Source: Thermoplasmata archaeon
GTDB lineage: Archaea; Thermoplasmatota; Thermoplasmata; Lutacidiplasmatales; UBA184
DNA length: 64,000 nucleotides
Assembly: GCA_035502035.1 (NCBI GenBank)
Contig: DATJUZ010000028.1
Location: forward strand, 1,639-65,638
Direction of reading: 5' to 3'
The notes below the pieces were generated by a model. The model had not been told where the DNA came from. It did not search any database and saw nothing but the letters and a program-made list of their open reading frames with translations. The position numbers and the translations under genes are program-made. Within the stretch, counting starts at the first letter, position 1. Every line of letters starts with the position of its first letter. Positions 42,777 through 57,878 of this stretch are shown one piece after another.

Positions 42777-44022
42777 GCCCGGGGGGCCGGTAGCCGAGCC
42801 GGCGCAGCGCCCGGGGGACGAGGAAGACGACCCCGGTGACGACCCAGAGCAGCCCGACCGCGAGGTACGTCGTGCGCGGTCCGTACCCCGAGACGAGCAG
42901 CGCGCCGCCGAGCTGGGCCGCCGGGAGGATCGCGATGCTCCCGAAACTGTCGACGCCGAAGTAGCGGCCCTGCATCTCGGTCGGGACGAGGAGCTGCGCG
43001 GCCGTCAGCCACGCGGTGCCGGCGAAACCGGCGAGGCCCCCCAGGGCAAACAGCGCCGCGAAGGCGACCGGGAGCGACGGCCAGGCAGCGAGGACGACCA
43101 CCACGGCGCCGGACGCGACCCCGTACGGGACCGTCCACGCCGCGCCCGCCCAGCGTACCGCCCCGAGCCGGCCGACGAGCAGCGAGCCCAGCCCCGTGCC
43201 GGCGACCTCGGCGGCCAGCAACAGGGCGTAGGTGAGCGCCCCGCTGTGCAGCACGAGCGTCGCGAAGAAGACGAGGAACGTCCCGACGACCCCGGAGCAG
43301 AAGTTGAAGAACGTGGCGGAGACCGTCAGCTGGAGGAACCCTTTCGCGCCCCAGAGCCAGCGGAAGCCGGCCGCGAGGTCGGCGAAGTACGACGGCAGGA
43401 CCGCACCGCCCGGCCGCGGCCTCGCCGGACCGATGCGCATGCCCGTGATCAGCGAGGCGGAGAGCGCGAAGGTGATCGCGTTCGCCCCGAGTCCCCAGAC
43501 CGGCCCGACCGAGACGAGCAGGACCCCGGCGACGGCCGCGCCGACGAACTGGAGCGCCGAGCGGCTCGACCGCACGAGACCGTTCGCGTCGGCGACGTGC
43601 TCTCCGGGGACGATCTGGGGAACGAGCGCCTGCTCCGCCGGGTTGAAGACCGTCGTGAACGCGCCGACGACCGCGTACGCCGCGAGGAGCGAGGCGAGGT
43701 CGAACCCGCGTACCGCGAGCTCGATGGTCACCGAGGCCATGGCCGCCGCCCGCGCGACGTCCGCGAGGATCATCAGGCGGCGGCGGTCGTACCGGTCGAC
43801 GAGCGCGCCCCCGAAGACGCTGAACGCGAGCGCGGAGCCGACCCAGGCGACGGCGAGGAGGCCCACGTCCAGCGCCGAGCCGGTCCGCTCCGCGACGATC
43901 CAGACCAGGCAGACGCTGGCGATCGCCGAGCCGGCGACCGAGCCGAGCCCCGCCGCGAAGACCCGAACGTAGTTCGCGTTCCGCATCAACGCGGCGTACG
44001 ACGCGGCGGAGCGCTCGGTCAT
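42709..44022 (-). CDS. MFS transporter (MFS_3/EntS-like)
   Basis: ATG 44022 (MTERSAASYAALMRNANYVRVF...) lies inside track ORF 42709..44556. Supporting sequence is GGALVDRYDRRRLMILAD, with about 12 TMS. The 3' end overlaps uppS convergently. Confidence 0.8.
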   Translation of the reverse strand: MTERSAASYAALMRNANYVRVFAAGLGSVAGSAIASVCLVWIVAERTGSALDVGLLAVAWVGSALAFSVFGGALVDRYDRRRLMILADVARAAAMASVTIELAVRGFDLASLLAAYAVVGAFTTVFNPAEQALVPQIVPGEHVADANGLVRSSRSALQFVGAAVAGVLLVSVGPVWGLGANAITFALSASLITGMRIGPARPRPGGAVLPSYFADLAAGFRWLWGAKGFLQLTVSATFFNFCSGVVGTFLVFFATLVLHSGALTYALLLAAEVAGTGLGSLLVGRLGAVRWAGAAWTVPYGVASGAVVVVLAAWPSLPVAFAALFALGGLAGFAGTAWLTAAQLLVPTEMQGRYFGVDSFGSIAILPAAQLGGALLVSGYGPRTTYLAVGLLWVVTGVVFLVPRALRRLGYRPPGPTPRSGAAATGTSGSPAGTRDA

Positions 44023-44038: not shown

Positions 44039-45229
44039 CTACCCGCGCCGACGCGCCCCCGGGGGCTCCCGAGGGAGGGAGGCCGGGGGCGTGCCGGACG
44101 GTCCGACCGCCGAGCGGCGGACCTCCTTCGGCGAGGCGCATCCGAGCAGCAGCATCGAGTTGGCGACCTCCGTCCCCAGGAGGCGCAGGTAGCGGTCGAC
44201 GCCGGCCGCACCGCCGACGGCGAGCGCCCAGAGAACCGGACGCCCGACCCCGACCCCCCGTGCGCCGAGCGCGAGGGCGACCAGGACGTCGCTCCCACGG
44301 CGCACCCCGCCGTCGAGGTAGACCTCGGCCCGGCGTCCGACCGCCCGGGCGACGGCCGGAAGGGCATGCAGGCTCGCGGGCGCGCGGTCGAGCTGGCGGC
44401 CGCCGTGGTTCGAGACGATGACGGCTTGAGCGCCGGCGTCCACGGCGCGTCCGGCCTCCTCTGCCGACAGCACTCCCTTGACGACGAGCGGGAGGGAGGT
44501 CGAGCCGGCGAGCCGCTCGACGACCGTCCAAGAGAGCTCGGCCGCCTCGCTCCCAAGCGCGTACACCCCGCCGTTCCACTCCGGCCCGCGGGCCGGGGTG
44601 GCGACGCCCGACCCGTTCCCTACGCGGGGCTGCCGGCGGAGGGCGAACCCGCTCTCGATCTGCCGGTCCCTCGAACCGAGCACGGGCGTGTCGATCGTGA
44701 GCACGAGCGCGGTGTAGCCGGCCCGTTCCGCCCGGCGGACGAGCGCGAGCGAGGCTCGCCACTCCGGCTGCGGATAGAGCTGGAACCAGCGGGGCCCTGC
44801 TCCCGCGGCGGCGCCGATCGCCTCGAGGGAGTCGGACGACAGGGTGCTGTAGACGCCGAGCACCCGGAGGCGGCCGGCGGCGCGCGCCGTGCCGCGCTCC
44901 CCGTCGGGGTGGAGCTCCCGCTGGTAGGCGGTCGGCGCCACGAAGAACGGAGCCCGGACCTCCGTGCCGAGGAAGGTGGTGGCGAGGCTCACTTCGCGCA
45001 GCCCCCGCAGGGCCCGGGGACGAAGCGACCACGCCGAGAATGCGTCGACGTTCGCCTCTCGGGTCCGTTCCGCACCGGCGCCCCCGTCGACGTAGCCGCG
45101 CACCGCGGGGGAAAGGACGCGCCGGGCGAGTCCCTCCAGCTCCCCGAGGGTGCGGAACGGTGGCGACCGGGGGGAGCGACGGACCATCGGGGGACCGACG
45201 AGCGTTCCGCCCCGCGGATTTGACGCCAT
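44039..45229 (-). CDS. FMN-dependent alpha-hydroxy acid dehydrogenase (L-lactate dehydrogenase / glycolate oxidase family)
   Basis: Family signature IVSNHGGRQLD is present, together with WFQLY and VKGV. The start could be at M15. Confidence 0.85.
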   Translation of the reverse strand: MASNPRGGTLVGPPMVRRSPRSPPFRTLGELEGLARRVLSPAVRGYVDGGAGAERTREANVDAFSAWSLRPRALRGLREVSLATTFLGTEVRAPFFVAPTAYQRELHPDGERGTARAAGRLRVLGVYSTLSSDSLEAIGAAAGAGPRWFQLYPQPEWRASLALVRRAERAGYTALVLTIDTPVLGSRDRQIESGFALRRQPRVGNGSGVATPARGPEWNGGVYALGSEAAELSWTVVERLAGSTSLPLVVKGVLSAEEAGRAVDAGAQAVIVSNHGGRQLDRAPASLHALPAVARAVGRRAEVYLDGGVRRGSDVLVALALGARGVGVGRPVLWALAVGGAAGVDRYLRLLGTEVANSMLLLGCASPKEVRRSAVGPSGTPPASLPREPPGARRRG

Positions 45230-45373
45230 CGCCGGGGCGGCCGGCCGCCCCGCGGCGCGCAGCCTCCATATAGCGCGGCCGCCGTCCGACCCTCGGCTGT
45301 GGGGTCAGCCATCGGGTCCCGGTTCGGGACCCGAGAATCGCAGCCCGGCTGCCAATGACCCCTGGGAGGATCG

Positions 45374-45856
45374 ATGCCCAGGGAGGGAGCGACAGGAGGG
45401 CGGACCGACGAGCCAGGTACGACGGGAACGCGCCCGAGCCGCCGCCCGGTCGTCCTCGAGCTGACCGACGAGCTCGCGGCGGCGCTCCGTCCGTGGCTGG
45501 ACGTCACGGAGGTCGGTGCCGTCGGCGTGCGGGCGTGGCTCCTCTCCGTGCTGCCACTCCTGCCGAAGCCCGGCTCGGGGGACCACGTCCTCGACCGGGA
45601 CTCCTCGCGCGGGAGCGCCGAGGAGAGGCTGGAGCGGCTCGCCCGCGCCCTCGCCGAGTGCGCCGGGGACCGGGCCCGCTCCCACTTCCAGGCAGCGGAG
45701 TACTTCCGCGAGAACCGCGTCCTCGCCCGGCGGGTGAAGGCGCTCGAGGCGATCGTCCGGACGCGCGCGGAGGCGACCGGCTCGCGTCCGGCCGGGCTCG
45801 ACGACCCGGAGGCGACCGCGGCGACGGAACGGTACCTGCCGGCGGTGCGCAAGTGA
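45374..45856 (+). CDS. Hypothetical protein (coiled-coil-like C-terminus)
   Basis: 160 aa. Its stop overlaps the GTG start of the USP gene (GTGA), which supports translation. No family recognised. Confidence 0.4.
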   Translation: MPREGATGGRTDEPGTTGTRPSRRPVVLELTDELAAALRPWLDVTEVGAVGVRAWLLSVLPLLPKPGSGDHVLDRDSSRGSAEERLERLARALAECAGDRARSHFQAAEYFRENRVLARRVKALEAIVRTRAEATGSRPAGLDDPEATAATERYLPAVRK

Positions 45857-46290
45857 TCGCCGACGGGACCGGGCCGGTCTCTCGGCTGGTCGTCGGCTTC
45901 GACGGTTCGCCTCCGGCGGCCCGCGCCGCCCGATTGGCGATCGATCTCAGCCGGGGCGGTCGGGCGCAGGTATGGCTCGTGTACGCCCATCGGCCGGACC
46001 CCCGGCTCGCCGAGCCGCGGACCGAGGAGGAGGTCCGCTCCCCCGCGGTCGCGACCGAGCGGGCGATGGAGCTGCTCGTCCGGGAGGGGCGCTCGCGCGG
46101 CGTCGAGGTCCTCCCCGTGCTCCGGGACGGCGACCCGGCGACGGTCGTGCTCGCCGTCTCTCGGGAGGTCGGCGCCGGCATGATCATGGTCGGCACGCGG
46201 GGGCTCGGCGCGGCGGCCCGCGTCCTGCTCGGCGCGGTCTCCTCCCGCATCGTCTCCGCGTCGACGGTGCCGGTGACGGTCGTGCCGTAG
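45853..46290 (+). CDS. Universal stress protein (UspA family)
   Basis: Supporting sequences are RLVVGFDGS and MIMVGTRGLGAAARVLLGAVSSRIVSASTVPVTVV. GTG 45853 lies inside track ORF 45355..46290. Confidence 0.8.
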   Translation: MIADGTGPVSRLVVGFDGSPPAARAARLAIDLSRGGRAQVWLVYAHRPDPRLAEPRTEEEVRSPAVATERAMELLVREGRSRGVEVLPVLRDGDPATVVLAVSREVGAGMIMVGTRGLGAAARVLLGAVSSRIVSASTVPVTVVP

Positions 46291-46346: not shown

Positions 46347-48359
46347 CTAGGCGAAGGCGGCGGCGACGTAGACCACGACGAGCAGCACCACGAGCAGGAT
46401 GTAGGCGAGGTAGCGTCCGAGGCGGCCGGTCATCACCCCACCCTTCAGCACGGAGGAGATCGCTTCCGCCGCGCGGACGAGGTCGTCGTAGAACAGCTTG
46501 AACACGTCCAGCACCTCGAGCTCGACGCTGTACGGGACCGGCGTGGCGAGCTCGGCCTGGCGCACGGGACCCGCGCCCGAACGGATCTCGCGCGTGCCGA
46601 GCACGCTGCTCATCATCAGGCGGAGGCCGGTGCTGTAGCCGAACGACGTGAAGACCTCCCCCGGCTGGCCCGGGGCGCTCCCGGCCATCCAGGGCGGGCT
46701 CCGTCGGACCCCGCGGCGGTGCCGTCGGCCGAGCAGATGGTAGCCGACCGCCACCATCGCCCCGGCGGCGAGCGCGATCGGCACCATCGGGGGCGACAGG
46801 ATCCCGAACGGTGCCCCGGAGAGGATCGACCAGCCGTTCGGCACGCTGAGGAGCCCTCCGACCGGAGCGCTCGCCGGCCGTCCCGCGAACGCCGAGACCG
46901 CCGGGGCGAGGAAGCGCAGGACCCACGGCGCACCGACCCCGAGCCCGAGGACGACCGCGCCCACGGCCCCGATCGGCACCGACAGCCCACGCGAACGCCT
47001 CGCCGAGACGGCCCCCCGCGGGTCCCAGAGCACCGCGAAGCCGACGAACTTGACCATCGCGATCACGATCAGCCCGGCGGCGAGGGCGACCGCAGCACCG
47101 GCGACCAGCCCCAGGAACTGGACCCAGGCCGGAACGAACTGGTAGGACTGGAAGAGCGACTCGAGGATCATCCACTCGCTGACGAATCCCGCGAGCGGCG
47201 GGGCGGCCGCGAGGCTCAGGGCCGCGGCGAGCGTGCCGGCGAACCCCGCCCTTTCGTCCCGCTTGACCCCCCCCTGGACCGACGTGAGGTCGAACGAACC
47301 GGTGGCGTGCTCGGTCCAGCCGGCCGCGAGGAACAGGGCGGTCTTGGCGACCGCATGGGCGAGCGCCTGGAAGAACGCGGCGAACAGCGCAAAGACGTAG
47401 AGGTCGGTCAGCCCCTCCGCGCGGGCGAGCATCGCGACCCCGAGGGCGACCAGGATGAGCCCGTTGTTCTCGATGGTGCTGTAGGCGGGAAGCCCCTTGG
47501 TGTGTTCGCTGACCGCGGCGAACAGCGCGCCGAGGAGGGCGGAGATCGCCCCGATCGCGAGCGTCACGGCGCCCCACCAGAGGGGGGGCGAGCCGAGGAG
47601 GCTCAGCACGCGGAACAGCCCGTAGGCCCCCGCGAGCGTCAGCGTGGAGCTGAGGACCGCCGAGGCGTTGGACGGGGCCGAGGAGTGGGCGATCGGCAGC
47701 CACTCGCTCATGTGGAACGGTGCGACGCCCATCTTGAGCGCGAACCCGAGCAGCGCCGCGACGAAGACGAGCGTAGGCAGCACCCCGCCTGCCGTGAGCG
47801 GGCTCTCGGCGAACGTGCCCGTGCCGACCCTCAGGCCGGCGAAGGCGACGAGGACGAACAACGTGCTCGCCTCGCCGAACGTGAGGAAGACGAACCCGGC
47901 GGAGAAGACCCGGTCCGGCCGTCCGCGCGCCTGGAGGATCATCCCGTAGGAGGCGACGGTCATCGTCTCCCATGCGAGGAGGAACAGCAGCAGGCTGGTC
48001 GACGCGACCAGCAGCGCGATCGAGCCGAGCGTGAGCGAGAAGCAGATCGCGAGGAGCGGGGACCGACGGTCGTCGTAGGCGATCGAGTAGCCGGAGGTGG
48101 CGATCCAGACGACGGAGGCGGCGAGTGCGAAGAATCCGGAGAGGCCGTCCAGCGCGAGCCCCTCCGGGTCGCTGAGGGGGCCGCTCCACGCGAGCCCATG
48201 GACCGCGCCGCCCGCGAGCGCCTCGACCGCTGCCGCGAACAGCAGCAGCGACGCGGCGAGCGAGACCGCGTAGCCCAGCTTCGGCCGCACGACCGCGAGG
48301 ACGGCGGCGGCGAAGAAGCCGGCGACGGCCGCGGAGAGGACCACGCCCCCAGCATCCAT
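46347..48359 (-). CDS. NuoL/HyfB/MrpA-like proton-translocating antiporter-type subunit
   Basis: 670 aa and polytopic. FHMSEWLPIAHSSAPSNASAVLS is the antiporter-like conserved segment. Confidence 0.85.
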   Translation of the reverse strand: MDAGGVVLSAAVAGFFAAAVLAVVRPKLGYAVSLAASLLLFAAAVEALAGGAVHGLAWSGPLSDPEGLALDGLSGFFALAASVVWIATSGYSIAYDDRRSPLLAICFSLTLGSIALLVASTSLLLFLLAWETMTVASYGMILQARGRPDRVFSAGFVFLTFGEASTLFVLVAFAGLRVGTGTFAESPLTAGGVLPTLVFVAALLGFALKMGVAPFHMSEWLPIAHSSAPSNASAVLSSTLTLAGAYGLFRVLSLLGSPPLWWGAVTLAIGAISALLGALFAAVSEHTKGLPAYSTIENNGLILVALGVAMLARAEGLTDLYVFALFAAFFQALAHAVAKTALFLAAGWTEHATGSFDLTSVQGGVKRDERAGFAGTLAAALSLAAAPPLAGFVSEWMILESLFQSYQFVPAWVQFLGLVAGAAVALAAGLIVIAMVKFVGFAVLWDPRGAVSARRSRGLSVPIGAVGAVVLGLGVGAPWVLRFLAPAVSAFAGRPASAPVGGLLSVPNGWSILSGAPFGILSPPMVPIALAAGAMVAVGYHLLGRRHRRGVRRSPPWMAGSAPGQPGEVFTSFGYSTGLRLMMSSVLGTREIRSGAGPVRQAELATPVPYSVELEVLDVFKLFYDDLVRAAEAISSVLKGGVMTGRLGRYLAYILLVVLLVVVYVAAAFA

Positions 48360-48366
48360 CGGACGC

Positions 48367-49104
48367 TCACTCCCCCGCTCGCGCGCGACCGAGCACGTCG
48401 AGCAGCGCGTCGAGGATCTGGATCGGGGTCGGCGGGCAGCCGGGAACGAAGCGGTCGACCGGGACGATCCCCTCGAGCGTCGGTCGAAGCCCCGGGTTGC
48501 CGCGGAACGCGCCTCCGCTGATCGGGCAGGCCCCGACGGCGATCACCGCCTTCGGTTCGGGAAGCGCGTCGTAGGCCCGTCGCAGCGGCTCGACCATCGC
48601 CTCGGTCGGCACGCCGACGACGAGCAGGACGTCGGCGTGCCGCGGAGAGTTCGTCAGGAACACGCCGAGGCGCTGCGAGTCGTAGTACGGGCTCGCGAGC
48701 GCGAGGACCTCGAGGTTGCAGGCGTTGCAGCTCCCGACGTCGACTAGGAAGACGTGCAGGGAGCGGCCCAGCTCGCGCAGCGGCGCGGCCGCCTCGTCGC
48801 CCGCTCCGTGCGGGGCGCCGGGGTGCTCGAGCTCCTCGCGACGTGCGACCGCCGCCTCGACCGGCCCGGCGGCGCGGAAGCCGTGGGCGAGGCATCGCGC
48901 GCAGCGGATGCACCGGCCCTGGTCGACCGCACGGTCGGAGATCGCGCCGACCGGACAGGCGTCGATCGCCGCGGGGGGGACCGTTCCCGCCGGCGGGAGC
49001 GGGGCGCGCGCGGTGAGGGGCGTCTCGTCCTCCGTCGCGGGGACACGGGGGTAGTGGGTCGTGACGATCCCCCGACGGAACGACTGGCCGATCCAGCTGG
49101 GCAT
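48367..49104 (-). CDS. NuoB/HycG-like small subunit with an N-terminal single [4Fe-4S] ferredoxin-like extension
   Basis: ATG 49104 lies inside track ORF 48367..49656. The NuoB core is VDVGSCNACNLE, SPRHADVLLVVG, AVGACPISGG and VPGCPPTP. The N-terminal part has ACPVGAI plus CIRCARC. Confidence 0.85.
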   Translation of the reverse strand: MPSWIGQSFRRGIVTTHYPRVPATEDETPLTARAPLPPAGTVPPAAIDACPVGAISDRAVDQGRCIRCARCLAHGFRAAGPVEAAVARREELEHPGAPHGAGDEAAAPLRELGRSLHVFLVDVGSCNACNLEVLALASPYYDSQRLGVFLTNSPRHADVLLVVGVPTEAMVEPLRRAYDALPEPKAVIAVGACPISGGAFRGNPGLRPTLEGIVPVDRFVPGCPPTPIQILDALLDVLGRARAGE

Positions 49105-49108
49105 ACGA

Positions 49109-50431
49109 TCAGCCGTCCGTTTCGGCGAAGACGAGGCCGAAGCTCTCGAGGGCGAAGTGAAAGTCGGTGAAGACCGCATCCCGCATGCCGGCGGCGAACA
49201 GCGGCCAGTTCGCCTGGCTGCTCGTCCGACCCGAGAGCGCGACGACCGTTCCGTCGCGCACCGTGACGTCGTAGACCAGGTCGCCGCTCGGTCCCTCGAC
49301 CCGACCGAGTCCCCGGCCCGCGGCGACGGACGGCGGCGCCGGCTCGACGCCGGCCCCGCTCCCCGGCCAGCGCTCGAGCATCTGCTCGAGCAGGAGCAGG
49401 CTGGCGCGGACTTCCTGCTCGCGGACCAGCAGGCGCGCCAAGGCGTCTCCGCCCTTCTCGTCCGGCAGGGCGAGGAACAGGTCGGTGTACGGGAGGCCGG
49501 GGACGCGCAGCCGGTCGTCCCAGGCGACCCCGCACGCGCGCAGCGTCGGACCGACCCCACCCCATCGCACGGCGGTGTCGCGGGGCACGGGGCAGGTCCC
49601 CTGGATCCGGTCGACGAACGTCCGGCTGTCGAGGAACAGCCCCCACAGCTCGTCAAACGTCCGCGACGCGGCGGCGAGCGCCTCCGCGAGCCACGAGCGC
49701 CCGCCCCGGTCGAGGCGCGGCGCCGGCCCCCCGGCGACGAGCGCCCCGAACAGCCAGCGGTGCCCGAAGACGTGCCCCTGGACGCGCAGCAGCTGCTCGG
49801 CGAGCGCCTGCGCCTGGGCCGCCCCCACGTTCTGCGATGCGGCCTCCGCGATGCGCGCGAGCACGTGGACGTGGTTGTAGACCCGCTGGAGCTCCTGGGC
49901 GAGCGCGCGGACCCACAGCGCCTCGACGGCGACCTCGGCTCCCTGCGCGCTCTCCGCTGCGGCGAGGAATGCCGAGACGTGGGATGCGGAGAAGTTTCCG
50001 GCGAGGCGTTCGATGCGGAGCGCCGCGTCGCGGACCGTCGCGCCGGTCACGGACTCGAGGACGTGGCGCGCCTTGTAGCCACCGATCGGGGTGAGCTCGA
50101 GGATCCGCTCGCCGTAGGTGAGGACGTCGAACCGACCGGATTCGGGTACGCCCATCGAGATCGGCCCGTAGGGGAACGTGAACGTTCCGTAGCCCTCGAC
50201 CGGCCTCCGCGGCGCGAGCGGCCGGAGCTCGCCGACCCGCGCCGTCGAGCTCCACGCAGCCCGGAGCTCGTCGTCGACGTCCGGCGGCGAGCCGTGGACG
50301 AGCACCGCTTCGCCGGTCGCGAGGTCGTTGTAGAGGACGAGCTCCCCCGCCGGATCGACGTAGGCGGGGCTCAGCTCCGGCGTGCGCGTGAAGTCGTCGC
50401 GCGCGACAAGGCGCCAGCCGGCCCTCGTCAT
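49109..50431 (-). CDS. NuoD/HycE-like large subunit lacking all [NiFe] cysteine ligands
   Basis: ATG 50431 lies inside track ORF 49109..51484. It reads RIERLAGNFSASH where hydrogenases have RxCGxCxxxH, and the C-terminus ...ALESFGLVFAETDG replaces DPCxxCxxR/H. The protein has only 2 Cys in total (GTCPVP, RACGV). Confidence 0.8.
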   Translation of the reverse strand: MTRAGWRLVARDDFTRTPELSPAYVDPAGELVLYNDLATGEAVLVHGSPPDVDDELRAAWSSTARVGELRPLAPRRPVEGYGTFTFPYGPISMGVPESGRFDVLTYGERILELTPIGGYKARHVLESVTGATVRDAALRIERLAGNFSASHVSAFLAAAESAQGAEVAVEALWVRALAQELQRVYNHVHVLARIAEAASQNVGAAQAQALAEQLLRVQGHVFGHRWLFGALVAGGPAPRLDRGGRSWLAEALAAASRTFDELWGLFLDSRTFVDRIQGTCPVPRDTAVRWGGVGPTLRACGVAWDDRLRVPGLPYTDLFLALPDEKGGDALARLLVREQEVRASLLLLEQMLERWPGSGAGVEPAPPSVAAGRGLGRVEGPSGDLVYDVTVRDGTVVALSGRTSSQANWPLFAAGMRDAVFTDFHFALESFGLVFAETDG

Positions 50432-51864
50432 GGGGCTCCTCCCCCGAACAGCGCCGCGGCCGCGCGGATCGCCGACGAGAGGTAGGGGAGGCTCGCGACC
50501 CCGAGGACGAGCGCGAAGGCGACGTTCAGGAGTGCGACACCGGCCCCCCGTTCCTCGCGGGCCGGAGCCGGCTCGGACCCGGTGGTCGCCGGCCCGAGGA
50601 CCATGCGGCCGACCTGCCCGTTCACCCCGACGAACGCCACGAGGATCGCGAGCACGAACAGGGCGGCGACCGCGTACTGCCCGAGGGCCACGGCGCCGAC
50701 GACGATCAGGAGCTCGCCGAGGAACGTGCCGAACGGCGGAGCCCCGGTCACCGCGAGGGCGGAGACCAGCCACGTTCCGCCCGTGACCGGCATCGTCGAC
50801 CGAAGGTCGCGGACGGCGTCGATCCGGGTCGTGCCGGTCGACCCGAGGACGTTCCCGGCGCAGTAGAACGCGGCGGACTTCGCGAACGCGTGCGCGACGA
50901 GGAGGAGGAGCGCCCCGTAGAGCGCGATCCCTCCGACCGCGATCCCGACGACGGCAAGCCCCATCACCTCCATGCTCGAGTAGGCGAGCATGCGCTTGTA
51001 CGAGCGCTGCCGCTGGAGCAGGAAGGCGCCGACCAGCGCCGTCGCGAGCCCGAAGACGACGACCAGCTCGCGGATCGGGGCGGGGGCTGGAGTGCCGAGC
51101 ACGCGGTAGACACGCAGGAACGCGTAGAGCGCGGTCGGCAGCAGCACCCCCGAGAACATCGCAGAGACCGGCGACGGGGCCTCCGAGTGGGCGTCCGGCA
51201 GCCACGTGTGCATCGGGAACAGCCCGACCTTCGTCCCGTAGCCGACGAGCGCGAGCGCGGCGGCCATCTCGACCGGCAGGGTCACGGCGGGAGGCGCGCT
51301 CGCGAGGCGATAGGCGTCGAGCGTCCCCGTATCCGTGTACAGGAGCAGCAGCGCGAAGAGGGCGATCGTGAGGCCGGCGGAGGCGATCAGCGTGTAGCGC
51401 CAGGCCGCCTCGACGCTCGTCGGCCGCCGCTCCAGCACGATCAGGAGCGCGCTCGAGACCGTCGTCGCCTCGATGCCGATCCACATCAGCCCGAGGTCGG
51501 TGACGACCAGCGCGCCGATCATCGTGAACGCGAACGCGCCCAGGAGCGCGTAGTAGAGCTGCGGGGTGAGGAACGGCCGGTGCACCGAGCGCAGGTAGCC
51601 GTCCGAGAACCAGACGGAGGTCGCATAGATGCTCGTGACGGTGAACAGCAGCACGTCGCTAAGCGCGTCCACGCCAAGGAACGACCCCCAACGCTCGTCC
51701 GCGGCCGCCCCTAGCAGCACGAGCGACGCGCCGACCGTGAGCAACGAGGCGACGCGCGCGACGGCACGGGTGACGGCCGGGTAGGGGACGAGCGCGAGCA
51801 CCGCGCCGGTCGACGGAGCGGCGAGGAGGACGAACAGCGCGAGCGTGCTTGGCGCGTCGATCAT
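50428..51864 (-). CDS. NuoM/NuoN/HyfF-like antiporter-type subunit
   Basis: 478 aa. Supporting sequence is KVGLFPMHTWLPDAHSEAPSPVSAMFSGVL. ATGA overlaps at both ends. Confidence 0.85.
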   Translation of the reverse strand: MIDAPSTLALFVLLAAPSTGAVLALVPYPAVTRAVARVASLLTVGASLVLLGAAADERWGSFLGVDALSDVLLFTVTSIYATSVWFSDGYLRSVHRPFLTPQLYYALLGAFAFTMIGALVVTDLGLMWIGIEATTVSSALLIVLERRPTSVEAAWRYTLIASAGLTIALFALLLLYTDTGTLDAYRLASAPPAVTLPVEMAAALALVGYGTKVGLFPMHTWLPDAHSEAPSPVSAMFSGVLLPTALYAFLRVYRVLGTPAPAPIRELVVVFGLATALVGAFLLQRQRSYKRMLAYSSMEVMGLAVVGIAVGGIALYGALLLLVAHAFAKSAAFYCAGNVLGSTGTTRIDAVRDLRSTMPVTGGTWLVSALAVTGAPPFGTFLGELLIVVGAVALGQYAVAALFVLAILVAFVGVNGQVGRMVLGPATTGSEPAPAREERGAGVALLNVAFALVLGVASLPYLSSAIRAAAALFGGGAP

Positions 51865-52508
51865 CCGGAGAGCTCCTCGAGCGCGGTCTGCTCCGGCGTC
51901 CCGGTGACGTCACGCTGGATCGACAGGATCACGCCGACCAGGACGACGCCGAGGACGTCCAGGAACACCACGACCTCGACGAAGAGCGGGAAGCTCGGGG
52001 CGAAGAGCGCCCCGGCGTACACGACGGCGTTCTCCTCCTCCAGGTAGCCGATCACCTGGACGATCGTGTTCGAGCGGGTCGCGAGCATCAGGAGTCCCTC
52101 GACGAGGAGCACGAACGGCAGGGCGCCGCCGGGCTGGGGGAAGATCGTCGCGAGCGTCTCCTGGAAGACGAACCAGGCGACGATCGCGAGCGCCACGGCG
52201 GCGAGCGCGTGCCCCGTGACCCGCTGCGCGGCGTGCACCTCGCGGACCCGCCAGCGGAACGCGCGTATCTGGCGGTCGAGGACCCACGGGATCAGGCCCG
52301 CACGGACGGCGACCGCGAGGCCGGCCAGGAGCGCGAGGTCCACGCTGCGCTGGCTCCAGGCGAGCCAGCCGAGCAGCGCGCCGAGGAGCAGCGACTGGAG
52401 AGCGATCCCGCGCACGAGCGGACCGACGAACGACTCCGACTGCAGGAACAGCGCCGTGAGGAGGATCCCGACCCCCACGAGCGCGACGAGCTCGGCGCCG
52501 GGGTCCAC
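51861..52508 (-). CDS. HyfE-like small membrane subunit
   Basis: 215 aa, about 6-7 TMS, with size and position as in hyf/ehr-type operons. The start is GTG, abutting the upstream stop. Confidence 0.65.
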   Translation of the reverse strand: MDPGAELVALVGVGILLTALFLQSESFVGPLVRGIALQSLLLGALLGWLAWSQRSVDLALLAGLAVAVRAGLIPWVLDRQIRAFRWRVREVHAAQRVTGHALAAVALAIVAWFVFQETLATIFPQPGGALPFVLLVEGLLMLATRSNTIVQVIGYLEEENAVVYAGALFAPSFPLFVEVVVFLDVLGVVLVGVILSIQRDVTGTPEQTALEELSG

Positions 52509-53465
52509 CTAGGGCACCCCCAGCACGACGAACGCGAAGATCGAAAGGATCGCGAGCGAGAACGACAGCGCGAGGAAGTCGCGGATCTTGAACAGCCGCA
52601 CCTTCGCGAGCGTCGCCTCCAGCAGGACGACCAGGGCGACCAGCGCGAGCAGCTTGCCGAGCAGCACGCCGATGTTCAGGACCGCCCCGACGAGCGACGG
52701 CTCGGCGAACATCCCCCACGGGAGCAGGAAGACGTTGACGAAGACCGAGTAGAGCAGGAACTGCTTCATCCAGCCGTTCCAGCGAAGGACGCCGAGCAGT
52801 CGGCCGGAGTGCTCGAAGATCCGACCGTCCTCGAGCATGCCGAACTCCATGAGTCCGGCGCTCTCGACCGGGAGCTTGCCGGTCTCGACGAGCAGGAGCA
52901 GGAAGAACGCGGCGGTGACGAGCAGGTGCGTCGGCGAGACGTACGCCGACATCGACGACGAGAGCAGGTTGTTCGTGACGTACGGGTTGTTCGTTCCCGT
53001 GATCACCGCGACGGCGAAGAACACGATGATCAGCGTCGGCTCGGCGAACGCGGCGAAGGAGACGGTGCGGCTGGCGCCCAGGACCGCGTAGTTGCTACCG
53101 GAGTCGATCGCGACGAGCAGGGTGAGTATGCCGGCGAGGCCGAACAGCAGCCCTCCGCCGAGGAAGTCGACGGTGGAGGCGAACGGGATCGGGTAGGGAG
53201 TGATCACCGGTACCACCACGGCGATCACGAGGTAGGCGCCGAAGGCGACGAACGGCGCGACGCTGAAGACCCGGGAGGCGGAGGACGGGAGGACCGTCTC
53301 CTTGCGGAGGTACTTCCTCAGGTCGCGGTACGGCTGGAGGATCGACGGACCCGTGCGGGACTCGGTCCACGCCTTCCCCCGCGCGGCGATCCCGGCGAGC
53401 AACGGGGCGAGGAGCAGAACGGTCGCGGCCTGGAGAACGTTGACGACCTGAGCCGTTGCGTCCAC
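52509..53465 (-). CDS. NuoH/HycD/HyfC-like membrane subunit
   Basis: 318 aa. Supporting sequences are ILQPYRDLRKYLRKE and LVETGKLPVESAGLMEFGMLED, typical of the HycD/NuoH family. First gene of the operon. Confidence 0.85.
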   Translation of the reverse strand: MDATAQVVNVLQAATVLLLAPLLAGIAARGKAWTESRTGPSILQPYRDLRKYLRKETVLPSSASRVFSVAPFVAFGAYLVIAVVVPVITPYPIPFASTVDFLGGGLLFGLAGILTLLVAIDSGSNYAVLGASRTVSFAAFAEPTLIIVFFAVAVITGTNNPYVTNNLLSSSMSAYVSPTHLLVTAAFFLLLLVETGKLPVESAGLMEFGMLEDGRIFEHSGRLLGVLRWNGWMKQFLLYSVFVNVFLLPWGMFAEPSLVGAVLNIGVLLGKLLALVALVVLLEATLAKVRLFKIRDFLALSFSLAILSIFAFVVLGVP

Positions 53466-53620
53466 TGCTGCCCACTCCGGTGTTCGGGAGCAGGCGTCAT
53501 TGGCCCGTGGGGCGGTTCGCCGGCAGGGCCGGCCGGCGGACGCCTCCGCCTGCCCGGTGGGGAGAGGGCGAGGTACTTAGCCATGCCGACGGGAGCGCAG
53601 CGGGGACCCCTACGACCGAC

Positions 53621-53970: not shown

Positions 53971-54327
53971 CTACAAACCGAATCTCTTTCGTAAGAACCC
54001 GAATGCCGTCTTCCCCTTCGAGGATCCAAAGCTAATCTGGGGAGCCGGACTTGAGGGGACCTTTGTTCTGTCCCTCGTTGTCAGTGCGGCCCCGAGCTGT
54101 GAGTCGGTCCATAGGACCAGAACGTCGTACTGCACGGGCGTTCCGGGCTTTGCGATCGCGACGCCTTGTGGGTCGACAACAAGCGTGGCGGATCCTGACT
54201 CGGTTCGGAAGACCCAGATTTGGGGGAGGTACCCTCTTATGATTCCGCCGAAGATTCCCTTTAGGTGAGGCTGTAGCTCCTGCGATATCTGCGGGCACAG
54301 TGCACCCAAGAGCTCGACATCGGTCAT
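53971..54327 (-). CDS. Small protein (118 aa), possibly an SCP2-like fold, partner of the upstream ATPase
   Basis: ATGA overlap with the ATPase stop. TLVVDPQGVAIAKPGTPVQYDVLVLWTDSQLGAALT ... KGKTAFGFLRKRF loosely resembles the SCP2 layout. Confidence 0.55.
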   Translation of the reverse strand: MTDVELLGALCPQISQELQPHLKGIFGGIIRGYLPQIWVFRTESGSATLVVDPQGVAIAKPGTPVQYDVLVLWTDSQLGAALTTRDRTKVPSSPAPQISFGSSKGKTAFGFLRKRFGL

Positions 54328-55496
54328 CGTGAGTCGATTGAGTCCCCTTCAGTGGCTCTCGGAAGAACGAGCCGCTCGATTAAGCGTCTGCGGATTACAT
54401 GATAGTAGGCGATGACCGGGGCCTTCCGTAGCTCGTAGTGCCCATAGGAGACCTTCAGGAGTATACCCTGCGCGACAAGTCTGCCTATGTACGGCGCTTG
54501 GATTGCCAGTTCTTCGATGATCTCAGAGCTACGGAGGTGACCCTTACCCGAGCTCGCAATCTTCGCGAAGGCCAGGATGTCGTTATCAGAGGCTCTCGCA
54601 CACTCTCGATTGAGCCAGCCCGCAGCGCTCTCAAGGGCAGTCCCTAGACGGGTGTTCACCGCCTCAGCGTCAAGGATGGCGTTTTCGCGATAGGTCGCTC
54701 TAGCGATGCAGTGGACGAGGTACGGGTAACCATGTGACAGGCGAAAAACAGTCTCAACTCCACTGTCACTCCACGTGGACCTCGAGTCGACTCTTCGTAG
54801 GGGATTGTCTAGGGCGTCTCTCGTCTCCGCGGCAGAGAGCTCGCCGACGTCGAAGCTAGAGTCGGTAAACACTCTGGCGACCGGCGAAGAGTCATGAGTC
54901 GCGAGTCGGTCTGAGAACTCGACCCCCCCGGTTACGACAAGGAAGACCGGCGTCGGCGAGTTGGCCTCCGCAATCGTCTTCAAGGCGCCGAGGCCGGATC
55001 GATCGAGCTGCTCTGCGTCGTCAATGGACACCATAAGCAGGGGAATCCCATCCAGGGAGTCCATACAGTCACGCCAGATCGAGATTGCTTGACTGGCCGG
55101 CCCCGCCTCTCGTGGCGAGATTGTAACGCCCGTACCGGCGACGTTTACGCCGCTGAACCGACGAAGGAAGGCCTTGAACTTCTCGCCAACGGTCGCACGG
55201 GTAGAAAGCTGCCGAGCGACCTCTGCGACGATAGTCCTGTACAATCGATCCTCGGAGGTTTCGCTCTGTAATGGTATGTCCACGGCGACTGCCTCGGACA
55301 GCCTTGATGTCACTTCGGCCCGGACCTTCCGCAGGATCGAGGTCTTACCGCTGCCACGGTATCCGTGGAACAGCATGGGGGTGGTACGCGTTAATCGCCT
55401 AGCAGACTCGACGGCCTCCTCCGACTTTGCCAGAATTTCGCGCCGCCCGGCAAAAACAGCTGGGTCCGCCGGCTGGCCCGGCGCGTAAGGGTTCAC
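54324..55496 (-). CDS. AAA+/archaeal-ATPase-type NTPase with a C-terminal winged helix (Arch_ATPase/ORC-like architecture)
   Basis: N-terminal NPYAPGQPADPAVFAGRREIL, Walker A GYRGSGKTS, Walker B LLMVSIDDAEQL, and a C-terminal wHTH-like ILAFAKIASSGKGHLRSSEIIEELAIQAPYIGRLVAQGILLKV. Confidence 0.8.
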   Translation of the reverse strand: MNPYAPGQPADPAVFAGRREILAKSEEAVESARRLTRTTPMLFHGYRGSGKTSILRKVRAEVTSRLSEAVAVDIPLQSETSEDRLYRTIVAEVARQLSTRATVGEKFKAFLRRFSGVNVAGTGVTISPREAGPASQAISIWRDCMDSLDGIPLLMVSIDDAEQLDRSGLGALKTIAEANSPTPVFLVVTGGVEFSDRLATHDSSPVARVFTDSSFDVGELSAAETRDALDNPLRRVDSRSTWSDSGVETVFRLSHGYPYLVHCIARATYRENAILDAEAVNTRLGTALESAAGWLNRECARASDNDILAFAKIASSGKGHLRSSEIIEELAIQAPYIGRLVAQGILLKVSYGHYELRKAPVIAYYHVIRRRLIERLVLPRATEGDSIDSR

Positions 55497-55554
55497 CCTT
55501 GCGGGTAAGTTCCACTTCTGATAAGCGTTCTGACGCGCTTGCCGTGGGACTCCA

Positions 55555-55572
55555 GTTTAATCGAAATTAAAC
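55555..55572. promoter_or_regulatory. Inverted repeat GTTTAAT-CGAA-ATTAAAC in the AT-rich spacer upstream of the ATPase gene
   Basis: Perfect 7-bp arms with a 4-nt spacer, 59-76 nt upstream of the ATPase ATG. It could be a TATA/operator for the ATPase or a terminator for the disrupted ORF. Confidence 0.3.
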
Positions 55573-55576
55573 GATT

Positions 55577-56151
55577 CTATACGGGTCGCTCCCCGTAACC
55601 TCCTGCAAGGCTCGCGATGCGCGACATCGTTCCCGCAGCGTACGACACACCGTCGGTCAAGAACTGCCTCGCTCGGGGAGTCATCTCCTGCCCGGCCGGG
55701 CTCACGGGTATGTCTGAGCCGCCGTAAACTGGCTCGAGAGTCGCAATCGGGAAGAGGGGGCCAGCTTCGAGTGTCTCAAAGTAGGTTCGGACCAGTTCGT
55801 GGCATCCCCCAAAGGGATCGGTATTCTGAAGGCGCGTGAGGTCGGGCCACCACTACTCCCTCCTAGTCCCGACCGCTACACCAGCCTGCCGCATCCTCGA
55901 GTGGATGTCAGAAAGGAGACCCCGGGCCGCCACAACGTCGACCTCGGCAGAGTGCCAGTCGTCAGCATGCAGAGCTGTCTGGAAATATAACCCAGGACCG
56001 CCGCGGTGACGTTGCCGTCGGATACGGTTGTCCCAAGGTCAAACCAGAGACGGCCACCTGGGGTTTCAGTCCAAATTTGGACCATGCCAGTCTCGTTGCC
56101 CAGGTAGGGGCCGCGACCACTGAAGTCGAAATCCCGGCGCGGCGTCCCCAT
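55577..56151 (-). pseudogene. Disrupted ORF: one frameshift plus one in-frame TAG
   Basis: Frame A starts at ATG 56151 (MGTPRRDFDFSGRGPYLGNETGMVQIWTETPGGRLWFDLG...GYIS). Protein-like sequence then continues in another frame (ALHADDWHSAEVDVVAARGLLSDIHSRMRQAGVAVGTRRE) up to TAG 55855-55853. The same frame stays open beyond the TAG (WWPDLTRLQNTDPFGGCHELVRTYFETLEAGPLFP...GYGERPV) to the stop at 55579-55577. Confidence 0.4.
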
Positions 56152-56261
56152 CGACTCGTCCTCTGCTTGGTCGTGGACTGGCAGGCAGCAGTGCTACGGA
56201 CTCATACCACCTAGCCTCATATCCTTGGGATGGCTTAGGAAAAGTAGCTACGCTATGAACC

Positions 56262-57878
56262 ATGCCTGAGTGGGTTTTGATAAGCGGTGCGCCGTATGTG
56301 ACAGTTTCTGCCATTGGCCTAGCACAGGGTAGGCCGCCCAACAATGGCGCGAATTTTGGCCCCGACACCCCTGGGACCGTAACGACCGGAATACAGGAAG
56401 CCCTCAACTTCATAGCCACGACAGGAGGGAGGGTACACTGCATACAAGGAGCGTACCTGGCGTCCGCTACTATCTCGTTCACAGGATCGAACCAACTGCT
56501 TTGGTTTGAGCCGGGGAGCTCCCTTACCTTTGCGAATGGGATATCGGGAGCAGTCCCTGCCTGGTTCGACCCGGAGGGATACTACTCGAAGAGCGACTCC
56601 CGGCTGATTCATATGGGATCCGACCTCGCAGATCCCATTGTTTACTCGCATCAGTGGCTAGTCGGGAACGGGCTCGTGGTAAACTGGGGGAGCAATACGA
56701 CACCAACGCTAAACAATGGGGTTTGCGTGACCGTGCCTGGGCAAGCCTCGGACCCGGCCTACACCGGCCCTGGAGGCTCCGACTACCTGATTGAGGGCTT
56801 GGTCTGCAGTGGCAAGATATTCTGTACCATCCTTGTGATGGCAGAGAACTTCAGCGCCTCCTCGCCAGTGCTGCTGACAGAGCCGCAGCGCACGAGGTTC
56901 ATTCGAGTTCGAAGAGTCTCCGCAACCTACTCCCTCGATGCCAACGCCGCGAAAATGAGCGCCATCCTGCTCCGGTGCAGCTCGGATGTTCTCGTCTCCG
57001 ACTGTTATGTCGACTGCTCCGCTCTCGGCAACGTAGACTACGATACGATCAACGTCACGGGCCACACCGGAGAGCTCGCCCAGGTCGAGGTCCGAAGATC
57101 CTATTTCCGCGGAAACGGCGTCTCGGGCCAGTGTTTGGAAGTTCAAGGCGGAGTAAGCCCCTCAACCGCAACATCGAGCACGGTGGGACTGCACGACGTC
57201 AGGTTTTCCCAGTGTACGTTCGATACTGGTGCCGCCACCGGAGCGCCGGTGGCTGGGCTCTCGGGCGCGTTTATTGACGATAACAACAGCACCACGGCCC
57301 TTGCGCAGCTCTGGAACGTCGAATTCTACCAGTGTCGCTGGATCAACTGCGGGGTCTCGATTCAGAGCACTTCGATAGCTATAACGGTCGGAGCGAGCCC
57401 GTTCACCTACACTAATGGGACTCCCGACCCTCAGGAGGTTACCGTTACGGGGGGGACTGTCTCAGCCATCACAGTTGGCGGTGTGTCGGTCCCCGTTGCA
57501 TCGCCCACGAGACTGTTGGTCAGACCCGGGGTCTCGGTGGTGGTTACCTACTCGTCGAGCCCGACGATGACCTGGAACGCATTTGGCTACCTGCGGTTCA
57601 GCGGGCAGTTGCCCTCAGCCATCGGCACCGCGGGCTCCTTGCAGGCGCGAGGTCCGAACGACAAAGGACCTCTGATGGCGGTCGGTTCTAGTCCCTTTAC
57701 CTACCAGAACGTAGACGGATTCGACGAGGTGGTCGTCGTGGACGGAGGATCGGTTTCGAGCATCTCCTTCAACGGTGCAGCGACCCCTCGAACCGGCGGC
57801 GATTTCAAGCTGGTCGCAGGTGACACCATCACCGTGTCTTACTCATCCGCACCCTCCATCAATGTTCAGGGCAAGTAG
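56262..57878 (+). CDS. Right-handed beta-helix (pectate-lyase-3 / tailspike-like) protein with two C-terminal repeat domains
   Basis: N-terminal GPDTPGTVTTGIQEALNFIATTGGRVHCIQGAY matches the pectate_lyase_3 entry motif. The middle has periodic Cys/Asn/Val-rich coils. No signal peptide. 538 aa. Confidence 0.8.
   Translation: MPEWVLISGAPYVTVSAIGLAQGRPPNNGANFGPDTPGTVTTGIQEALNFIATTGGRVHCIQGAYLASATISFTGSNQLLWFEPGSSLTFANGISGAVPAWFDPEGYYSKSDSRLIHMGSDLADPIVYSHQWLVGNGLVVNWGSNTTPTLNNGVCVTVPGQASDPAYTGPGGSDYLIEGLVCSGKIFCTILVMAENFSASSPVLLTEPQRTRFIRVRRVSATYSLDANAAKMSAILLRCSSDVLVSDCYVDCSALGNVDYDTINVTGHTGELAQVEVRRSYFRGNGVSGQCLEVQGGVSPSTATSSTVGLHDVRFSQCTFDTGAATGAPVAGLSGAFIDDNNSTTALAQLWNVEFYQCRWINCGVSIQSTSIAITVGASPFTYTNGTPDPQEVTVTGGTVSAITVGGVSVPVASPTRLLVRPGVSVVVTYSSSPTMTWNAFGYLRFSGQLPSAIGTAGSLQARGPNDKGPLMAVGSSPFTYQNVDGFDEVVVVDGGSVSSISFNGAATPRTGGDFKLVAGDTITVSYSSAPSINVQGK
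57378..57866 (+). repeat. Protein-level tandem duplication (~64 aa x2) at the C-terminus of the beta-helix protein
   Basis: VGASPFTYTNGTPDPQEVTVTGGTVSAITVGG...VVVTYSSSPTMTW (57378-57575) aligns with VGSSPFTYQNVDGFDEVVVVDGGSVSSISFNG...ITVSYSSAPSINV (57675-57866). Confidence 0.7.

Follow-up and report, generated by a model that had tools for sequence, protein, structure and literature searches.

What can a relative of the group 4 hydrogenases and of respiratory complex I be for, once its catalytic subunit has lost every ligand of the NiFe site? The question is raised by six abutting genes on the minus strand, at positions 46347-53465, of a 64-kb stretch of DNA (termed here the window; GC content ~73%) from contig DATJUZ010000028.1 of a Thermoplasmata archaeon. 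A preliminary description of the window assigned these genes to the energy-converting-hydrogenase-related (Ehr) class. The analysis described here indicates that the locus almost certainly does encode a six-subunit Ehr-type complex--that is, a hydrogenase-4 (Hyd-4)/group 4 hydrogenase derivative without a NiFe site--and that its operon is very probably under the control of a fluoride riboswitch. The explanation favored for the locus as a whole, to which a probability of roughly 0.55 is assigned, is that the complex is a fluoride-induced ion pump, driven through iron-sulfur (Fe-S) clusters and serving pH and ion homeostasis.

The Ehr class, which according to papers citing it was defined by Marreiros et al. 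(2013), consists of group 4-like complexes lacking the Ni and Fe ligands (PMC6349859, PMC10284858), and a scheme for its subunits, EhrA, B, C, D, L and S, has been published (PMC7894505). Known examples are GSU0739-45 of Geobacter sulfurreducens, Rv0082-87 of Mycobacterium tuberculosis, and complexes of Nitrospira and of ammonia-oxidising archaea, and their function is given as unknown (PMC6349859, PMC10284858, PMC10432482, PMC6728331, PMC7894505). Named according to that scheme, and listed from 5' to 3', the genes of the window are:

52509-53465, minus strand: EhrB, a NuoH/HyfC/HycD-like membrane subunit of 318 aa (PF00146, 2.7e-31; best E. coli match HyfC).
51861-52508, minus strand: EhrC, a HyfE-like membrane subunit of 215 aa (NCBIfam NF008556, 4.5e-10, under the cut-off; HyfE by blastp, 2e-4).
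50428-51864, minus strand: EhrD, a HyfF/NuoM/N-like antiporter-like subunit of 478 aa (PF00361, 1e-55).
49109-50431, minus strand: EhrL, the NuoD/HyfG-like large subunit, 440 aa (PF00346).
48367-49104, minus strand: EhrS, the small subunit, a fusion of half a HycF/NuoI ferredoxin to a HycG/NuoB-like part (PF01058).
46347-48359, minus strand: EhrA, a HyfB/NuoL-like antiporter-like subunit of 670 aa with a long C-terminal extension (full-length matches to NCBIfam HyfB models).

All six open reading frames (ORFs) are intact and show a strong GC bias at third codon positions (GC3). The ORF listing, GC3 frame analysis and inspection of the junctions reproduced exactly the coordinates, strand and all five junctions of the preliminary description--namely, a TAG stop followed directly by a GTG start (0 nt), two ATGA overlaps, a 4-nt gap and a 7-nt gap. 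Its family assignments for the six proteins also stand, in Pfam, in NCBIfam (where all matches fall below the equivalog cut-offs) and by comparison with E. coli K-12, in which the best matches, in operon order, are HyfC, HyfE, HyfF, HyfG, HyfI and HyfB. The order of the operon can therefore be written H-E-F-L-S-B. The operon stands by itself, preceded by a promoter-like box and a leader and meeting a convergent operon at its 3' end, and the locus is present in 54 species-representative genomes, its gene order and bounds being unchanged in more than 50 Thermoplasmata genomes and in distant lineages as well. A Pfam scan of the ~50 ORFs of the window found no hyp, hycI, formate dehydrogenase (fdh) or further nuo genes, as had been claimed for the maturation and fdh genes, and the annotated surroundings of the operon in other loci, more than 10 of them, contain no hyp, hycI, fdh or additional nuo gene either.

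The large subunit carries the first part of the answer. EhrL contains two cysteines in total, C280 and C300, both of them away from the ligand positions. Aligned to sequences of the Protein Data Bank (PDB), the L1 motif--ERMCGICSFSH in MbhL and DRVCGICGFAH in HycE--corresponds to ERLAGNFSASH in EhrL, with A144 and F147 in place of the cysteines, and the L2 motif, SLDPCYSCTDR in HycE, corresponds to the C-terminal SFGLVFAETDG, with V434 and E437 in their place. Among 52 EhrL relatives (aligned at 56-71% identity) none has a cysteine at any of the four NiFe positions, and 91 columns of the same alignment are invariant, a pattern that looks like purifying selection on a protein other than a hydrogenase, rather than decay. 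The earlier claim that all NiFe ligands are lost is upheld by these alignments, in which no intact CxxC pair appears that could have been misread through a wrong register. The register that had been given for L1 was, however, off by three: the arginine of RxCGxC is R142 (ER-L-A-G-N-F) and not the one in 'RIER'. The quinone ligands of complex I are missing too, since H38, Y87 and D139 of Thermus Nqo4 (H224 and Y273 of E. coli NuoCD being the equivalents of the first two) correspond to P96, G145 and A197; across the family, P96 occurs in 49 of the 52 sequences and G145 in all of them. Moreover, EhrL stops at its L2-equivalent motif, and thus has no C-terminal extension for endopeptidase processing.

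The best PDB match of EhrL by sequence is MbhL (6.9e-24). An AlphaFold2 (AF2) model of the protein, with a mean predicted local distance difference test score (pLDDT) of 90.5, finds as its top matches HycE and the fused NuoCD of E. coli (template-modeling score TMq 0.80), as against ~0.72 for plain NuoD chains. Because the fused proteins match better than plain NuoD, the beta-rich, 85-residue N-terminal extension of EhrL may be a reduced NuoC-like remnant; a profile of residues 1-92 gave nothing significant against the PDB.

How EhrL is related to true hydrogenases was examined through an exhaustive search of 1.84 billion protein representatives, from which the nearest 150 representatives of clusters at 50% identity were taken. 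Only 22 of the 150 have all four NiFe cysteines (CCCC). The Thermoplasmata clade itself amounts to about three such clusters, and no sequence beyond it exceeds 44% identity. In a neighbor-joining tree of 147 representatives--a rough tree, without support values--the sister groups of the EhrL of the window are all ligand-less to a depth of eight, and the 22 CCCC sequences are gathered in a single clade far away; hence, as far as the large subunit is concerned, the protein nests among ligand-less lineages and not inside bona fide hydrogenases. Distant ligand-less lineages, furthermore, have the same H-E-F-L-S-B gene order. It is because of this standard layout, the loss of the ligands, the placement among ligand-less relatives and the match to the published EhrA/B/C/D/L/S scheme that the Ehr identity proposed in the preliminary description is accepted here.

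The small subunit proved to be more than had been supposed. EhrS has a 110-residue N-terminal extension, and a profile of its residues 1-100 matches, from residue 1 onward, HycF (7z0s_F; subunit 6 of formate hydrogenlyase, a NuoI homologue) with E=4.8e-5. The remainder of EhrS is hydrogenase-type, with CxxC, C and GCPP motifs, its best matches being MbhJ (1.2e-42) and HycG (pLDDT of the AF2 model, 87). Of the two cluster motifs of a ferredoxin, the first has lost its CxxCxxC and kept its CP, and the second has kept its CxxCxxC and lost its CP, so that a single ferredoxin-type [4Fe-4S] site is predicted to remain, assembled from C50-P and C65xxC68xxC71; this site we take to be the equivalent of cluster N6b of complex I, which lies next to N2 in the Thermus structure. 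The C-terminal part contributes C126xxC129, C193 and GC223PP. Because all eight cysteines are invariant in 121 sequences, EhrS is predicted to carry two [4Fe-4S] clusters: a ferredoxin-type cluster and a proximal, N2-like one. The retention of the four proximal-cluster cysteines is thereby confirmed. The earlier statement that NuoA, C, I and J are all absent, on the other hand, holds for NuoA and NuoJ but fails for NuoI, of which half a HycF domain with four invariant cysteines is present, and a remnant of NuoC may exist in EhrL. The eight-cysteine fusion also occurs in distant relatives of the SSSG and EASG types, whereas a CCCC relative has a separate ferredoxin gene and small subunit; to judge from this distribution, the fusion seems to be characteristic of Ehr complexes in general. 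One metagenomic locus of the CFSD type (L068), which keeps the six-gene layout, has a small subunit of 156 aa (10227-10697 of ENA ERZ27247594 k141_206776) with two cysteines and no GCPP.

The membrane arm, examined in family alignments of 43-48 loci, is read from sequence as one that retains the hallmark glutamates and lysines of ion translocation. In EhrD, E132 of transmembrane helix (TM) 5, K212 of TM7 and E384 of TM12 are invariant (46 sequences), as are E131, K209, the H335/K339 pair and E395 in EhrA (48 sequences). E142 of EhrB corresponds to E157 of NuoH, with which R37, D48, K51, K55, E56, R133, K271 and R290 are also shared. The C-terminal half of EhrC is NuoK-like, and its invariant E157/E159 and E178/D184 fall, in an approximate alignment, near E36 and E72 of NuoK; a search of EhrC against the PDB gave no matches.

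Compared with known systems, the complex shares with other Ehr complexes the six subunit types (NuoL-, NuoH-, HyfE- and NuoM/N-like, large and small) and a large subunit without CxxC ligands, but its clade is distinct in that EhrL carries an 85-residue extension and not a full NuoC domain. From the Hyd-4/formate hydrogenlyase-2 (FHL-2) system of E. coli (hyfABCDEFGHIJ), to which it corresponds through HyfC/E/F/G/I/B and the order C-E-F-G-(H::I), it differs in lacking NiFe ligands, HyfA, HyfD and HyfJ, in fusing half of HyfH to HyfI, in placing hyfB at the 3' end, and in having no formate dehydrogenase or maturation genes within the 64 kb. Hydrogenase 3 (FHL-1, group 4a; PDB 7Z0S) supplies the top fold match, HycE, and shares the CxxC...C...GCPP motif of the small subunit. 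With complex I (Nuo/Nqo) the locus has in common the NuoB, D, H, K, L and M/N modules, the TM5 Glu, TM7 Lys and TM12 Glu/Lys, and an L2-equivalent that resembles NuoD in having Val and an acidic residue for Cys; yet the quinone ligands are gone, the small subunit has CxxC (C126, C129) instead of the tandem-CC N2 motif of NuoB, and there are six genes rather than the eleven core ones, with no NuoA, no separate NuoC, I or J, no NuoEFG, and two antiporter-like subunits only. The best PDB matches of both peripheral subunits belong to the Pyrococcus complexes MBH (6CFW) and MBX/MBS (6U8Y), but these have 13-14 subunits, a full Mrp module, a separate two-cluster MbhN and MbhK, as opposed to six genes and one ferredoxin-type cluster here. 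The Mrp antiporters, finally, are seven-subunit complexes (MrpA-G) without redox subunits, whereas here MrpA/D-like and NuoK/MrpC-like subunits only are combined with NuoH-, NuoD- and NuoB-like ones, including the Fe-S subunit. A descendant of group 4 that has lost hydrogenase chemistry and kept ion pumping is not without precedent, MBS being one.

What such a complex might be for is suggested by the RNA in front of it. An alignment of upstream regions revealed an element of ~85 nt that, in practically all loci, immediately precedes the operon and that corresponds to 53463-53552 in the window. Its parts are:

53573-53580, minus strand: TATA-like box CTAAGTAC, ~27 nt upstream of the leader RNA.
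53484-53552, minus strand: aptamer, a full-length match to Rfam RF01734 (90.6 bits with the clade covariance model R1).
53550-53535, minus strand: helix P1 of the aptamer.
53544-53540, minus strand: 5' strand of the pseudoknot.
53533-53519, minus strand: inserted hairpin.
53513-53503, minus strand: helix P3.
53497-53493, minus strand: 3' strand of the pseudoknot.
53466-53495, minus strand: expression platform, folding (as the minimum free energy structure) into a hairpin of GCCUGCUCC (53495-53487) with GGAGUGGGC (53478-53470).

Among 4,227 Rfam families, RF01734--the crcB motif, that is, the fluoride riboswitch--gives the sole match with E<=1 in the 64 kb (21.0 bits; E=0.001 locally and 0.22 over the whole window). 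The element shares with the crcB motif P1, an 8-nt loop, P3, a pseudoknot from loop to 3' tail and an AUGA-type 3' motif, the full model being covered, and differs from it as a GC-rich variant with a 14-15-nt hairpin inserted between P1 and P3, with substitutions in the loop and 3' motif, and with a score below the gathering score; insertions at the same site occur in two copies of distant lineages (L068 and L069) that score above it. With R1, which was built from 33 leaders and leaves the pseudoknot out of its structure, 39 orthologous leaders score 64-102 bits. In 35 of the 38 orthologous leaders a TATA-like CTAAGTA/AT-rich box begins 27-31 nt ahead of the aptamer, and the box of the window probably acts as the promoter, judging by archaeal promoter geometry.

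Because folding of the single sequence is not significant by itself in so GC-rich a background (z = -1.6), the argument for the structure rests on covariation. In 72 confident copies, 96.7% of the cells are paired (77.9 +/- 0.8% after shuffling); both partners vary in 12 of the 18 pairs; and the covariation score is 0.380, compared with 0.092 for shuffled alignments (reached by 0 of 500) and at most 0.08 for slid partners. The pseudoknot, which is 99.7% paired, varies at one position between CG (43 copies), GC (23) and AU (5), and occurs as GGCGU:ACGCC (in the Ehr leader), GGGGU:ACCCC, GGAGU:ACUCC, GAUAU:AUAUC and GGAAU:AUUCC. Downstream of it, the 9-bp hairpin of the expression platform shares GCC(U) with the 3' strand of the pseudoknot and holds the Shine-Dalgarno (SD)-like GGAG just 5' of the GTG start (53465-53463); it is 98.6% paired in 33 sequences, with compensatory changes and a covariation score of 0.204 (0.175 for shuffled alignments, reached by 0 of 500; at most 0.065 for slid ones). 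Structurally, then, the leader is shown to be a pseudoknotted aptamer of the fluoride-riboswitch type, and from this it is inferred that its ligand is fluoride. Its architecture is probably that of a translational ON switch: because the 3' strand of the pseudoknot overlaps the hairpin that sequesters the SD sequence, fluoride binding would be expected to free the ribosome-binding site and so to turn translation on. The preliminary description, in calling the physiological role of the complex unknown, agreed with the literature but missed these leaders, which bear upon that role.

Relatives have RF01734 elements at the same position that score 35.5-57.7 bits, the gathering score being 34. The following copies, from distant lineages, score at or above that threshold with the Rfam model and immediately precede the Ehr operon:

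L067: 55.0 bits, NFWE type.
L090: 50.7 bits, SSSG type.
L087: 49.5 bits, SSSG type.
L068: 46.6 bits, CFSD type (the locus whose small subunit is without Fe-S cysteines).
L086: 42.3 bits, SSSG type.
L063: 40.2 bits, an AT-rich member of the Thermoplasmatota.
L106: 38.4 bits, NHWE type.
L069: 37.7 bits, SSSG type.
L109: 36.5 bits, NHWE type.

How general the arrangement is was surveyed in 80 metagenome loci retrieved by means of the conserved H subunit, of which 75 include upstream sequence. None of the 80, where the large subunit could be read, is of the CCCC type, and a riboswitch occupies the front of the operon in at least 26 of the 75 independent loci, a lower bound, since the Rfam model was applied to 12 loci only. 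The types that chiefly carry it are the query-like, NFWE, NHWE, SSSG, AFSD, CFND and STIE/STVE types. In some loci above-threshold riboswitches lie 0.8-4 kb upstream on the same strand (L111, 4624-4686 and 997-1060; L118, 4410-4471; L080, 4209-4281; L120, 1285-1345), and here the switch may be separated from the operon by one or several additional genes. Some 2 kb upstream of the operon of L063, at 2842-3072, there is a match to the HEARO RNA (RF02033; 72.5 bits, gathering score 83), which points to an IS605/OMEGA-type element nearby.

In the riboswitch literature, 'formate hydrogen lyase' and Na+/H+ antiporters figure among the genes commonly associated with fluoride riboswitches (PMC11139923, PMC8004769). 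A review of 2024, which refers to Baker et al. (2012), reads the former as a true formate hydrogenlyase, ranks the latter second after exporters, and links fluoride stress to pH homeostasis through permeation of HF (PMC11139923). At the locus described here, by contrast, the 'formate hydrogen lyase' is an Ehr complex and not a hydrogenlyase. A link of Ehr to fluoride, to a fluoride-riboswitch leader or to the genes described next was not found in the literature covered, in which Baker et al. (2012) and Marreiros et al. (2013) are represented by the papers that cite them.

Convergent to the Ehr operon, and directly adjoining its 3' end, is a second operon behind a second element of this kind:

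45293-45390, plus strand: fluoride-riboswitch-type leader (P1 GGCU/AGCC, pseudoknot GGGGU:ACCCC), directly upstream of p160.
45374-45856, plus strand: p160, an uncharacterised protein of 160 aa, found in 32 of 38 loci.
45853-46290, plus strand: Usp, a universal stress protein (PF00582, 1.1e-22), sharing 4 nt with p160 and separated from the end of EhrA by 56 nt.

This leader scores 40.1 bits with R1 (E=3.6e-6 over 748 kb), and the same position is matched in ~30 other loci. Its SD sequence (GGAGG) and the ATG at 45374 are enclosed in a hairpin, CCCUGGG/CCCAGGG, that competes with the pseudoknot, and it would seem that the p160-Usp operon is controlled by the same logic as the Ehr leader. A convergent Usp gene lies within 2 kb in 33 of the 38 loci with enough flanking sequence and, according to Pfam, in one further locus (L009). 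The p160 protein belongs to no Pfam family; the suggestion that it is a ribbon-helix-helix regulator was not confirmed, inasmuch as Pfam and PDB profiles gave only coiled-coil-like or designed-helical matches. Its family motif reads LRRRLxAWVDVDEVGxxGFWLWLRAxxPLLP ... RDNxxLxRRLKALE ... ERYL. The members of the family, extra paralogues included, each have a riboswitch copy in front of them; paralogues occur in L017 (~4229), L042 (~808), L030 (~3671), L022 (~3947) and L040 (~8177, minus strand), and there is a further family member in L067 (13242-13700). In L040, moreover, a copy of the type found in Ehr leaders (8535-8625) precedes an ORF for a major facilitator superfamily (MFS)-like transporter (~8626, 429 aa), which suggests further members of the fluoride regulon.

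The favored explanation may be set out as follows. At low external pH, HF would diffuse into the cell and release H+ and F- in the cytoplasm, and the complex would be made in response to the fluoride. A soluble low-potential donor--most plausibly ferredoxin, which is the obvious donor in Thermoplasmata--would dock at the exposed N6b-like cluster of a peripheral arm that has been compacted into two proteins, EhrL and EhrS. The electrons would then cross two clusters to an acceptor at the remodelled interface of the L, S and H subunits, possibly a quinone in a non-canonical pocket, and their flow would drive the translocation of protons or other cations. In this way the pH of the cytoplasm would be restored, together with the membrane potential on which the export of fluoride depends, while glycolysis and ATPases, which are fluoride-sensitive, would be bypassed. 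The component parts of this explanation are not equally secure: control by a fluoride riboswitch has been judged very probable above, but redox-driven ion pumping for fluoride and pH homeostasis is put forward tentatively, at rather less than an even chance.

A number of observations weigh against this explanation. As regards the RNA, the Ehr aptamer of the window is under the Rfam gathering score (21 versus 34 bits), the Rfam model does not detect the p160 leader, and normally conserved positions are substituted (GA for AU in the loop, and CCAAUGA for CUGAUGA), so that the ligand specificity of the window aptamers may be altered; Ehr loci of the EST/EGTG type, moreover, are essentially without the riboswitch, and the TATA/transcription-start geometry of the leader is, like the equation of the ferredoxin site with N6b, something that we presume. 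As regards the genes, the Pfam scan of the window found no fluoride exporter (crcB or CLC-F), and in no locus examined is an electron donor or acceptor gene linked to the operon. As regards the proteins, the acceptor site of EhrL has neither hydrogenase nor quinone ligands; the central TM8 lysine of NuoM/HyfB is replaced by Pro243 in EhrD and by Leu242 in EhrA, both invariant in the clade; and conservation within the clade is higher for the membrane subunits (H 79%, E 79%, F 70%, B 67%) than for each of the peripheral ones (62%), which speaks against redox drive in particular. The same holds for L068, whose small subunit lacks every Fe-S cysteine and whose riboswitch is nevertheless above threshold: its complex is apparently redox-dead, and redox drive is therefore not universal to the fluoride-linked function.

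These last two points are what keep alive a reading in which the complex is a redox-independent, Mrp-like cation/proton antiporter working under fluoride or acid stress, its Fe-S clusters being structural or a redox sensor, with no net catalysis. Such an antiporter would fit the better conservation of the membrane subunits, the intact six-gene layout of L068, an EhrL without a recognisable acceptor site and the second rank of Na+/H+ antiporters among the genes under fluoride riboswitches (PMC11139923). Eight invariant Fe-S cysteines in 121 sequences and 91 invariant EhrL columns would, however, be a costly investment in a purely structural role, and the geometry of a two-cluster chain has been retained from HycF and HycG, so that this reading is considered unlikely, if far from negligible. 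Less likely still is a housekeeping, miniature complex I--a routine oxidoreductase between ferredoxin (or another donor) and quinone--whose leader senses something else or nothing. Lutacidiplasmatales are reported to respire aerobically, with complexes III and IV (PMC9287336), the Fe-S cysteines and pump residues are conserved, and both aptamers of the window carry the weaknesses just described (sub-threshold or undetected with Rfam, and substituted at conserved positions). Related Ehr operons, though, have canonical fluoride riboswitches above threshold in the corresponding place; the covariation of the pseudoknot and helices follows the crcB motif exactly; the p160 and Usp genes are co-regulated through the same element; and the complex I quinone ligands are missing.

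Two other readings can be given very little credence. Most database entries name such proteins 'Ni,Fe-hydrogenase III large subunit' or 'formate hydrogenlyase subunit', and their homology to HycE/HyfG and MbhL is real, but a genuine [NiFe] hydrogenase or formate hydrogenlyase is hardly conceivable when the four NiFe cysteines are missing in 52 of 52 family members, the extension for the endopeptidase does not exist, and hyp, hycI and fdh are found neither in the window nor in the neighborhoods examined. That the operon, with only six of the 11-14 complex I genes, is a piece of a canonical nuo/fpo cluster whose remainder lies elsewhere, or else a decaying cluster of pseudogenes, is about as implausible: an identical six-gene unit recurs in more than 50 Thermoplasmata species-level genomes and in distant lineages, it has its own promoter box and leader and ends against a convergent operon, its small subunit has the hydrogenase-type CxxC and not the CC of NuoB, and its ORFs are intact, strongly GC3-biased and rich in invariant residues.

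The surroundings of the locus may be described briefly. Judging by its content, the genome is archaeal, because the window encodes TFB, aIF5B and the thermosome (as well as TruD) and because the homologues of EhrL and EhrS come nearly all from metagenome-assembled genomes labeled 'Thermoplasmata archaeon'. An ATP-dependent phosphofructokinase (PF00365), highlighted elsewhere as an acquired trait of Lutacidiplasmatales, lies at 39256-40278; together with the high GC content and with sources in acid soil and peat, it makes Lutacidiplasmatales the probable order of the host. An Ehr-type complex does not appear in the main text of the study of that order (PMC9287336). Just beyond p160 are an FMN-dependent alpha-hydroxy-acid dehydrogenase (44039-45187, minus strand) and an MFS transporter (42709-44022, minus strand). 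This pair was considered as a partner module and rejected because it is conserved in one other locus only (L014, where the dehydrogenase is 64% identical); the dehydrogenase is probably unrelated to the complex. Adjoining the Ehr promoter on its upstream side is an island of low GC content (0.60 versus 0.73) at 54000-59500, with genes for a STAND/AAA_16 NTPase (54324-55496), a 538-aa protein without a family (56262-57878), a methyltransferase (58140-58796) and small ORFs. Relatives hold other genes at this position, and the island may be an inserted defence or mobile element.

The Ehr complex is itself already known in kind; what is added here is its link to a riboswitch, the half-ferredoxin fused into its small subunit, the co-regulated p160-Usp pair and, through these, a hypothesis about its role that can be tested. 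Whether many Ehr complexes are fluoride- or acid-stress-induced ion pumps or antiporters, redox-driven or not, so that the 'formate hydrogen lyase' category of the fluoride regulon really is Ehr, is a proposition to which slightly less than an even chance is given; at this locus, at least, the riboswitch-associated 'formate hydrogen lyase' cannot be a hydrogenlyase. If that proposition holds, p160 and Usp would be further members of an archaeal fluoride regulon, and the riboswitch would supply the physiological setting that has been lacking for an orphan relative of complex I. This relative, in which an evolutionary bridge from hydrogenases to complex I has been seen as a matter for discussion, is widespread, with examples in Geobacter, M. 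tuberculosis, Nitrospira, ammonia-oxidising archaea, candidate phyla and soil Thermoplasmata. The occurrence of riboswitch-fronted Ehr operons in several distant lineages makes the function of Ehr experimentally approachable. It also suggests why archaea of acid soils and acid mines keep the complex, for it is there that the influx of HF is strongest.

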